From positions 59,566 to 123,565 of the forward strand of contig CAWICQ010000001.1 in assembly GCA_963834755.1 (NCBI GenBank): a stretch of 64,000 nt of DNA. The letters run 5' to 3'. The translations under genes and the position numbers were made by a program. A model generated the notes under the pieces. The model was given only the letters and a program-made list of their open reading frames with translations, searched no databases and had not been told where the DNA came from. Shown in pieces: positions 51,625 through 52,504 of this stretch (positions are counted from its first letter, which is position 1; the number at the start of each line of letters is the position of its first letter). This DNA comes from an uncultured Gammaproteobacteria bacterium (GTDB taxonomy: Bacteria; Pseudomonadota; Gammaproteobacteria; Xanthomonadales; Rhodanobacteraceae).

Positions 51625-51723
51625 TTTTTTGTCGGTTGTTCATTTTGTCGCGGCGCGCGTTGGGCTCGTCGTCCTGGCGTAGGTTGGGATTCGGTGTTTT
51701 TGGCTTTTGCTTCTTTGGTCTGC

Positions 51724-51996
51724 GGCGCTTGGCGAATACCGGCTCACGTCCGTGTGTGTTTCCGTCCGCCATCCTGGCGGACGGGTCACTTCTCTTTGCT
51801 TGCCCAAAGAGAAGTAACCAAGAGAAAGGGCACCCACACGGCCGCGGTCGCCGGGCATCGTGCCCGGCGACTCCGCGAGGGCGCTCCGGAGGTTCGCTGA
51901 CGGCACGTCCATGTGCCGACAGCGAACGCGCGCGCATCGTGCGCGCGCCCCTTCGGGCTTTTCCCTACGCGCCCTCGCCGCGGCCGAGAGGGACCC
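51724..51996 (+). repeat. Structured ~275-bp repeat, copy 1
   Basis: Multiple hairpins including CACTTCTCTTTGCTTGCCCAAAGAGAAGTAAC; homologous to the reverse complement of 52084-52361. Confidence 0.8.
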
Positions 51997-52083
51997 GGTA
52001 GAAGCAGAGCGCGGCCGTCCTGCCCGCAGAAGCAAGAGTAGAAGCGACGTGCAGATCTCTGCTCTGGCCTCGCACTTGACCTT

Positions 52084-52361
52084 GGGCCCCTCTGTGCCGC
52101 GGCGAAGGGCGGACGGAAGAGGCCCGCGTGCTCCGCACGCGGGTGAGCGCGAGGGATCGCGCTCATTCCGCTGCGGCACAGGATGTGCCGTCAGCGGAAC
52201 CCCGTCCGCCCGTAGCGCACCCGGCGCGTAGCGCCGGGCGCGACACCGAGGGTGTGTTCTCTTTGGTTACTTTCTCTTGCACAAGCAAGAGAAAGTGACT
52301 CGGCCGCCATGGATGGCGGACGAAAGCACACAAGGACGTGAGTCGGTTCTCGCGAAGCGCC
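52084..52361 (-). repeat. Structured ~275-bp repeat, copy 2 (inverted)
   Basis: GTTACTTTCTCTTGCACAAGCAAGAGAAAGTGAC and other stems match copy 1 in inverted orientation. Confidence 0.8.
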
Positions 52362-52504
52362 AAAAACCGAAAAAAAGCATAACGAACACAGCCCACGAAC
52401 TCACGGCAATCCGCCAAGAAAGACACATACCACCGAGGCCATCCACCGGGCCCAAAAAGCACAATCAAAAAGAACCCCACCCCCAATACGCTAAGCTCTA
52501 CAAA

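Follow-up and report, generated by a model that had tools for sequence, protein, structure and literature searches.

What fills the gap of about 880 bases between a 174-aa gene (51100-51624) and the start codon (52505) of a small ferredoxin gene, whose Fer4 domains are matched in Pfam, in a Rhodanobacteraceae genome? The window analysed here is the whole 64,000-nt stretch around this gap; coordinates are window positions unless a contig is named, and the host genome comprises 4.05 Mb in 14 contigs with ~64% G+C. The explanation that we think best, and consider probable, is that the gap holds one divergent doublet of a structured non-coding element of the TwoAYGGAY type, most likely one that codes for RNA. 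Two inverted arms (51711-51996 and 52084-52374) carry the same series of hairpins and are about 70-80% alike. A repeat search found complementary blocks at 51711-51774/52311-52374 (81%), 51775-51821/52263-52309 (74%), 51887-51910/52181-52204 (83%) and 51954-51996/52084-52126 (72%), and a MAFFT alignment of the left arm with the reverse-complemented right arm gave a mean column identity of 81% with the hairpin order kept. A first-pass annotation of this DNA had described structured head-to-head arms with a shared hairpin order, which both analyses bear out; the three hairpin pairs that it quoted are all in the sequence, and their differences preserve pairing. The mirror bias that it noted in the outer flanks is equally plain from base composition: on the plus strand, the left flank (51625-51726) is 43% T, 34% G and 3% A, and the right flank (52375-52500) is 40% A, 37% C, 15% G and 8% T, in a genome with ~18% A and ~18% T. 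It had also found no credible open reading frame (ORF) here. No Pfam family matched the four longest ORFs of the gap, and copies elsewhere in the genome differ by 1-nt insertions or deletions, which indicates that there is no coding signal.

We aligned 83 distinct near-complete arms for a consensus fold and 71 sequences of the outer module in a second alignment, A2. The consensus has a basal stem and six hairpins, four of them inner and two outer. Across the 83 arms, 4664 cells hold Watson-Crick pairs and 261 hold non-pairs, and at most paired positions there are two to four kinds of pair, with changes on both sides. The proposal that structure is selected at the level of RNA or single-stranded DNA was thus borne out, and the pattern of substitutions points to selection on a structure formed by a single strand. 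The outer hairpin Pa follows the same rule in A2, with both-side changes in six of its seven pairs and 90.9% of cells paired. G-U cells number 158 when the arms are read on the outward strand (from the centre towards the flank) and 57 on the inward strand; RNAalifold gives -77.7 outward and -55.1 inward; and one pair is U-G in 28 of the 71 sequences of A2. Together, these data place the fold on the outward strand, in agreement with the strand of the Rfam TwoAYGGAY matches that lie beside the module in two relatives (L163 and L124).

The conserved 3' end of each arm appears to fold as a knotted hairpin with a triple helix of about eight U.A-U/C+.G-C layers. The loop of a polypyrimidine/polypurine hairpin (stem S2) co-varies with four bases just 5' of a second pyrimidine tract (stem S1; examples are UGCC/GGCA, UGGC/GCCA, UGUC/GACA and UCGC/GCGA). 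All four S1 pairs show both-side changes in A2, where 89% of their cells are paired, and this covariation between the loop and its 5' flank indicates an H-type pseudoknot. The second pyrimidine tract is a mirror image, not a copy, of the hairpin's pyrimidine strand and therefore matches the purine strand by parallel complementarity in a fixed register. In A2 the parallel match between tract and purine strand reaches 7.52 of 8 positions (57 of 71 rows are perfect), compared with 5.76 ± 0.16 of 8 (maximum 6.35) when tracts are shuffled among rows and 5.31 of 8 in the best antiparallel register. A G in the purine strand is opposed by a C in the tract in 122 of 138 cases, and at least eight distinct purine cores obey the rule, including the asymmetric AGAGAAAA/UCUCUUUU and AAAGGAGA/UUUCCUCU. 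Among class-wide modules outside A2, 112 of 140 have perfect 8-of-8 parallel matches. At two different positions, in three genomes (L134 for one, L124 and L127 for the other), the purine strand carries a T with A as its Watson-Crick partner, and at each inversion the third tract has a G, which yields G.T-A triples. Within the parallel pyrimidine motif, the classic non-canonical triple is G.T-A, and RNA triple helices tolerate G.U-A (PMC6698731). The order S1a, loop 1, S2a, S1b, S2b would place loop 1 in the major groove of stem 2. Telomerase and SAM-II pseudoknots have their loop 1 in the same groove. Although the genome is ~64% G+C, the tract has few C residues, and these hardly ever stand next to each other (one or two isolated C in eight); such a composition suits a triplex with stability around neutral pH. 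Watson-Crick pairing of the third tract with the hairpin, as a switch, or with the partner arm was considered and rejected, because such pairing is not maintained (5.3 of 8 antiparallel versus 7.5 of 8 parallel).

The TwoAYGGAY motif has stood in Rfam as an orphan (RF01731) since 2010 (Weinberg et al. 2010, PMC2864571); that it is a large element with many copies that forms doublets was not recognised until 2026. A preprint of September 2026 (bioRxiv 10.64898/2026.09.22.753630) describes "extended TwoAYGGAY" RNAs in Pseudomonadota with a 3' pseudoknot, an elongated basal stem and additional hairpins, preceded by GMTBT(T) words and followed by large repeats or odd sequence; it gives median copy numbers of 11-23 per genome, finds 68.4% of doublets divergent, and proposes Csr/Rsm sponging and mobile-like expansion. 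The arms studied here have this architecture, with a basal stem and hairpins H1-H4 followed by a pseudoknot with a covarying S1. They also resemble the extended form in their many copies, in their GMTBT words (2.71 per 100 nt upstream on the sense strand, 0.96 on the antisense strand and 0.57 in the whole genome) and in the orientation of their doublets, of which 28 of 41 are divergent class-wide, nine convergent and four tandem. RF01731 itself is found next to the module in other genomes. In Pseudomaricurvus (L163), matches of 56.7 and 48.8 bits, above threshold, lie directly 5' of the module on the same strand and form a divergent doublet with A/C-rich tails like the studied locus; in L124, a match of 55.5 bits has the module directly 3' on the same strand. 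On the outward strand, AYGGAY loops occur in left H2 (AUGGAC) and right Pa' (AUGGAU), alongside CAGGAUG in right H2' and left Pa, AGGGAU in H3' and ACGAUG in left H1 and H3. The arms differ from TwoAYGGAY in having three or four hairpins, with CGAUG or AGGAU in several loops instead of AYGGAY, and in that the left (L) and right (R) units have diverged to ~70% identity yet travel together; their tails are A/C-rich.

Judged by these comparisons, the element is a diverged, Rfam-invisible member of a recently described family. The novelty that the first-pass annotation had attached to the family therefore falls away, since the element is of the TwoAYGGAY type and the extended doublet architecture is in the preprint. 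The family, its doublets and the sponge idea are already known; what is new is the comparative evidence, given above, for a long triple helix, a feature not yet described for TwoAYGGAY. Also new are the assignment of the fold to the outward strand, the occurrence in several phyla and the recognition that the L/R doublet is what is copied. The preprint's main text makes no mention of a triple helix, of Xanthomonadales or of occurrences outside Pseudomonadota. Other identities were not found: with cut-offs of E <= 1 and E <= 10, Rfam gave only chance-level matches for the region (Xanthine, BTH_s1, sbcD, CRISPR repeats), and a literature text search with the element's sequence words returned only unrelated primer sequences. 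The xanthine (NMT1) riboswitch match, in the doublet centre (52031-52069, plus strand), scored 23.6 bits (gathering score 36) and lacks the greater part of the model interior; we judged it to be chance.

A BLAST search of the region against the host genome revealed about 12 loci: four complete doublets (C1:111265-111947, the one studied, C3:83766-84489, C9:286466-287136 and C12:504159-504866) and about eight partial copies with internal deletions, mostly between the two arms. The arms are of two types, L (seven copies) and R (six copies), that are 83-96% identical within a type (86-95% among the six R-type arms) and 58-76% identical between types. Every complete doublet has one L arm and one R arm, which demonstrates that the whole L-centre-R unit multiplies; the doublet is the unit that is copied. 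Copies in this genome are always intergenic and lie between genes of every relative orientation. Its single arms are all sense to flanking transcription, and single arms between same-strand genes were counted as seven sense and three antisense.

Comparison of the lipoprotein-ferredoxin spacer among relatives gave both filled and empty sites, as the first-pass annotation had proposed to look for. Most genomes of the genus have a gap of 76-270 bp without the element, often holding other repeats. The element is at the orthologous spacer only in the closest relatives (L079, L085, a single arm in L082 and remnants in L080), and L083 and L084, equally close, lack it; presence and absence at one spacer among close relatives show gain and loss on short time scales. 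No insertion boundaries or target-site duplication could be defined at this site, because the spacer turns over with several other repeat types and fast-evolving tails blur the ends of the element. In L087, L091, L093, L094 and L097-L099, the same spacer is filled by convergent GGGATTC/GGGAATC-type heptamer arrays around a hairpin, which makes it a hot spot for several unrelated repeat families. Tandem copies of yet another repeat, GTCATTCCGGCGAAGGCCGGAATCC-like, occupy it in L080 and L083, and in L080 they sit between remnants of the element's outer ends.

The family extends well beyond this genus. The arm family is present in 110 of 151 genomes and 27 of 30 genera of Rhodanobacteraceae and also in other families of the order, and about 31 of 50 of the relatives' loci are outward-facing pairs. 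A covariance model of the pseudoknot module, R1, found the module in 91 of 400 genomes (77 of 321 genera) sampled across Gammaproteobacteria, usually in many copies. An exact-pattern scan found it within or near Xanthomonadales (Dyella, Xanthomonas, Stenotrophomonas, Lysobacter, Rudaea, Dokdonella and Frateuria), elsewhere in Porticoccus, Pseudomaricurvus, Halopseudomonas, Pseudomonas and Methylocaldum, and in metagenome-assembled genomes of Desulfobulbus and Desulfurivibrionaceae (Desulfobulbales). The megaplasmid pILYOP01 of Ilyobacter polytropus (Fusobacteriota), a low-G+C host, carries seven unannotated copies of a ~330-nt unit that ends in a near-identical module (NC_014633.1: 223987, 230348, 364580, 573318, 663187, 673064 and 800511), several of which end 9-94 nt from the stop codon of a convergent gene. 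A search of a phage collection gave no match, and a search of a plasmid collection matched only this megaplasmid. The family reaches well beyond what the Rfam model detects, throughout the Rhodanobacteraceae, to other Xanthomonadales and to at least two other phyla.

The loops of the fold suggest a partner. On the outward strand they read CAGGAUG, CAUGGAUG, CAGGGAUG and CAUGGACG, which match the CsrB repeat and the CsrA consensus from systematic evolution of ligands by exponential enrichment. Among the 83 arms, GGA is present in the loop of H2 in 80, H3 in 54, H1 in 47 and Pa in 40, and the H2 stem co-varies. Conservation of CA(N)GGAUG loops on co-varying stems points to a partner that reads the loops, such as CsrA, and the genome has a single csrA gene (C12:406963-407118, 92 bits). 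Furthermore, RF01731 belongs to the same Rfam clan, CL00106, as the Rsm-type RNA RsmV. We know of no CsrB/RsmZ-type RNA in Xanthomonadales, only of RsmU, in Xanthomonas; the arms are concrete candidates for RsmA/CsrA-binding RNAs in this order.

We hypothesize that each unit (~290 nt plus tails) is transcribed outwards from the centre, and that the transcript would comprise, from 5' to 3', the GMTBT words, a basal stem with three or four hairpins, the pseudoknot-triplex, a terminal hairpin and an unstructured A/C-rich tail. The first loop of the pseudoknot (UUCUCUUU in the right unit) would lie in the major groove of the second stem and form ~8 U.A-U/C+.G-C triples. The GGA hairpins may bind the genome's single CsrA and serve either as a multivalent sponge or, on neighbouring transcripts, as a handle for CsrA. 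Transcription would terminate in the A/C-rich tail, after which the triple-helix knot would shield the RNA 3' end from 3'-to-5' exonucleases. The doublet itself would spread as DNA by a mobile-element-like process and decay via deletions between its inverted arms. In its boldest form, this model holds that the 3' pseudoknot truly forms an RNA triple helix, 8-9 layers deep and kept near letter-for-letter across Pseudomonadota, Desulfobacterota and Fusobacteriota, that it caps self-spreading CsrA-binding RNAs, and that these are the main antagonists or cis-recruiters of RsmA in Xanthomonadales; we offer this version tentatively, as a possibility that we ourselves rather doubt.

Several observations weigh against an RNA of the TwoAYGGAY type. 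The covariation would also fit a fold of single-stranded DNA, and C+.G-C triples require protonated cytosine. The best RF01731 match in the window reaches 22 bits (E 0.94; 52272-52329, plus strand) against a gathering score of 43, and a genome-wide search with RF01731 gave no match at E <= 1. Left H1 and H3 have CGAUG instead of GGAUG, and family-wide only H2 is near-invariant for GGA. A scan of the element and its immediate surroundings for sigma-70-like promoters and intrinsic terminators gave nothing beyond chance; a sigma-54-like TGGC-N8-TTGA in the centre was rejected, as it is without the conserved GC and absent from relatives. Many copies have internal deletions, and individual copies are therefore dispensable. 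Finally, orientation relative to neighbouring genes follows no clear rule, and three of six Ilyobacter copies are antisense to both neighbours.

Much of this would also be expected of a purely selfish DNA element, one with no function as RNA. Its hairpins, pseudoknot and triplex would then arise on DNA that is single-stranded, be it the template of the lagging strand or an intermediate of transposition. The fold could be recognised by a recombinase or transposase acting in trans, as in REPIN/RAYT or at IS200/IS605 ends, or could simply promote illegitimate recombination, which has been proposed for repeats that form intrastrand triplexes. Such an element would account for the copying of an inverted doublet to many sites, for a locus that is filled or empty among close relatives, for decay by deletion between arms, and for the missing promoter, terminator and orientation rule; with inverted pairs, the lagging-strand template would also carry the fold for either direction of fork movement. 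Bacterial repeats that form intrastrand triplexes in DNA are, moreover, abundant and tied to local instability, without promoter or terminator activity (PMC4666352). Yet the genome has neither a Y1 transposase/RAYT nor TnpB although copies are 90-96% alike, and a DNA-only role does not readily explain CA(N)GGAUG loops that are kept while stems co-vary, G-U pairs that are frequent at fixed positions (such as the U-G pair of A2) or a module sequence that is near-identical across three phyla. Rfam curators and the authors of the 2026 preprint also treat the family as RNA. We consider a purely selfish DNA element a serious rival, with a minority chance of being correct.

Known classes of mobile repeat were considered individually. 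The first-pass annotation had suggested a non-autonomous mobile repeat similar to REPINs or miniature inverted-repeat transposable elements (MITEs). The multi-copy nature of the element, in this genome and in relatives, and the turnover of its site stand; the lack of Y1_Tnp and TnpB in the genome speaks against a REPIN/RAYT mechanism, and for a MITE mechanism no target-site duplication or matching transposase could be identified. REPIN/RAYT was rejected because PF01797 (Y1_Tnp) had no match in the genome while control genomes were matched, and because the units are ~290 nt, compared with 20-40 nt for repetitive extragenic palindromic (REP) sequences; in being far larger than ordinary REPs, the element is as first described. 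REPs and REPINs are similarly extragenic, structured, strand-specific units whose inverted doublets multiply within a genome, but the units here are about ten times larger and multi-domain. As for MITEs, whole arms serve as inverted repeats, with ends blurred by the tails and no definable duplication. An omega RNA of TnpB/IscB was considered because omega RNAs combine a pseudoknot and a triplex, with a variable 3' flank after them; it was rejected, as PF07282 had no match in the genome and Rfam gave no HEARO match. A transposon with cargo was also rejected: ORFs between outward-facing modules in other Gammaproteobacteria are unrelated small genes that by eye are not transposase-like. Such module pairs, 1.0-1.3 kb apart, were seen in L138 (808-1728), L139 (773-1558) and L140 (809-1264), and one of the enclosed ORFs, of 306 aa, has what seems to be a PD-(D/E)xK-like motif; these ORFs may be cargo or may simply lie in neighbouring spacers.

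It is improbable, in our view, that the element is cis-acting punctuation for its neighbour genes, that is, a bidirectional insulator, a Rho-dependent stop or a stabiliser of mRNA 3' ends. On read-in from either side, the distal arm of a doublet would always be in its folding orientation, and the C-rich, G-poor tail beyond it could then load Rho. The strictly intergenic position fits this, as does a doublet that makes function independent of orientation, and single arms in this genome have the expected sense orientation. Sense-strand tails are A/C-rich and G/T-poor (37% C and 15% G at this locus), with C exceeding G in 100 of 139 tails class-wide. Nevertheless, family-wide this bias is weak (31.9% C versus 28.2% G), copies occur in divergent promoter regions that receive no read-in (C3:76k and C9:38k), the antisense Ilyobacter copies do not fit, and the conserved GGA loops are left unexplained. 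A chance palindrome or an assembly artefact has a negligible probability, being refuted by copy number and covariation, with hundreds of related copies carrying compensatory changes in independent assemblies.

A TwoAYGGAY-type RNA capped by a triplex would have counterparts in several known systems. Among the Csr/Rsm small RNAs (CsrB, RsmX/Y/Z/V), several hairpins likewise carry GGA in CA(N)GGAUG-type loops, and csrA is present in this genome; the element differs in being a dispersed repeat without recognisable promoter or terminator, not a single regulated gene. The Csr/Rsm families of Rfam had no significant match in the region (RsmV, 11.6 bits). RsmU of Xanthomonas is a 77/117-nt fragment of the comEA 3' untranslated region with a terminator (PMC7694677), and kinship with it was rejected, as it bears no evident relation to the element.

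RNA triple helices in telomerase and riboswitches are shorter than the 8-9 consecutive triples suggested here. If confirmed, the module would rank among the longest RNA triple helices that occur naturally, and it would be a widespread example from bacteria. It resembles the telomerase RNA pseudoknot, SAM-II and the MALAT1/PAN element for nuclear expression (ENE) in having loop 1 parallel to the purine strand with predicted U.A-U and occasional C+.G-C triples (PMC5224487, PMC6379651, PMC7102945), and differs from these systems in being bacterial and multi-copy. By analogy with ENEs, a position near the 3' end would fit a protective role; the module's purine strand is internal, whereas in an ENE it is an A-rich 3' tail that is clamped by a U-rich loop.

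Bacterial intrastrand triplex repeats form a further group, the PIT elements/TM_ECO and ITxF classes I-IV (Holder et al. 2015, PMC4666352). As in ITxF, the Hoogsteen pyrimidine, Watson-Crick pyrimidine and purine tracts are on one strand, in the order of class IV on the outward strand and of class II on its complement, and the modules with 8-of-8 matches (57 of 71 and 112 of 140) have three triplet-compatible tracts of at least 8 nt; the second spacer, at 8 nt, exceeds the 1-6 nt loops searched for ITxF. Like the elements of Holder et al., the arms are dispersed, intergenic and often in inverted pairs at variable loci. TM_ECO is a free-standing, G/C-rich purine motif of ~37 nt, whereas the module is U/A-rich, forms one domain of a ~290-nt RNA-like fold and has a hairpin loop that also pairs with the 5' flank to make a pseudoknot. 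The TM_ECO/PIT consensus CCCTCNCCC-N3-6-GGGNGAGGG-N3-GGGNGAGGG is absent from the window, and the A/U-rich module does not fit it. Elsewhere in the genome, G/C-rich hairpins of the form CCCTCCCC-TTCAAG-GGGGAGGG-TT-GGGTGGGG do fit this consensus (C12:504105, C9:152640, C11:370055 and C3:64921); two are in the outer tails of TwoAYGGAY-type doublets, none is in the window, and similar hairpins occur in L080-L082 just past the stop codon of the 174-aa gene.

Table 1. Predicted features of the two units and of the centre between them.
Feature	Position	Strand	Basis and remarks
Left unit, 3' tail	51625..51723	-	Minus (putative RNA-sense) strand A/C-rich, plus strand T/G-rich; low complexity, fast-evolving; ~65 nt in common only with the closest copy, C12:108349
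Left unit, terminal conserved block (GGCGCTTGGCGAATACCGGCTCACGTCC...)	51724..51761	-	Genus-specific; kept in all copies of this genome, not in other genera
Left hairpin Pa	51762..51784	-	Minus-strand loop CAGGAUG; helix 3 in A2
Left pseudoknot-triplex module	51785..51832	-	R1 match 51756-51849, minus strand, 92.1 bits; covariation
Left module, S2 helix	51785-51798 with 51805-51818	-	S2 covariation
Left module, S1 (strand in loop and its partner)	51801-51804 with 51829-51832	-	S1 covariation
Left third-strand tract	51820-51827	-	Minus strand reads UUUCUCUU, parallel to purine strand AAAGAGAA; three-way covariation
Left multi-branch domain	51833..51996	-	RNAalifold and per-pair counts, 83 arms
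Left basal stem	51833-51848 with 51978-51992	-	Encloses H1-H4
Left H1	51848-51870	-	
Left H2	51892-51927	-	Minus-strand loop CAUGGACG
Left H3	51928-51948	-	
Left H4	51949-51958	-	
Centre between units	51997..52083	.	GMTBT(T) words 5' of each unit
Centre, GTAG-flanked small hairpin	52011-52027		
Centre, words on plus strand	52054-52065	+	GATCT at 52054, GCTCT at 52061
Centre, words on minus strand		-	Three GCTTCT and GCTCT
Right multi-branch domain	52084..52252	+	Basal stem from 52085; aligned with left arm
Extra hairpin, specific to R type	52123-52143	+	
Right H3'	52144-52165	+	Loop AGGGAU
Right H2'	52169-52198	+	Loop CAGGAUG
Right H1'	52215-52242	+	
Right pseudoknot-triplex module	52253..52299	+	R1 match 52236-52329, plus strand, 82.7 bits; covariation
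Right S1a	52253-52256	+	UGUG
Right third strand	52257-52264	+	UUCUCUUU
Right S2a	52266-52279	+	
Right S1b, in loop	52280-52283	+	CACA
Right S2b	52286-52299	+	Purine core AAGAGAAA at 52287-52294
Right hairpin Pa' and terminal conserved block	52301..52361	+	Pa' at 52301-52322, loop CAUGGAUG
Right unit, A/C-rich 3' tail	52362..52500	+	Extends up to the ferredoxin start codon at 52505

Two minor observations concern what lies next to copies of the element. Three copies in the host genome are directly downstream of ORFs of ~870-970 aa (C1:18026-20893, C9:11619-14228 and C9:283466-286375), which have similar codon-position G+C and may be one kind of large gene. In L120, another gammaproteobacterial genome, a group II intron domain (RF00029, 63.8 bits; 1846-1921) lies ~250 nt from a pseudoknot module.

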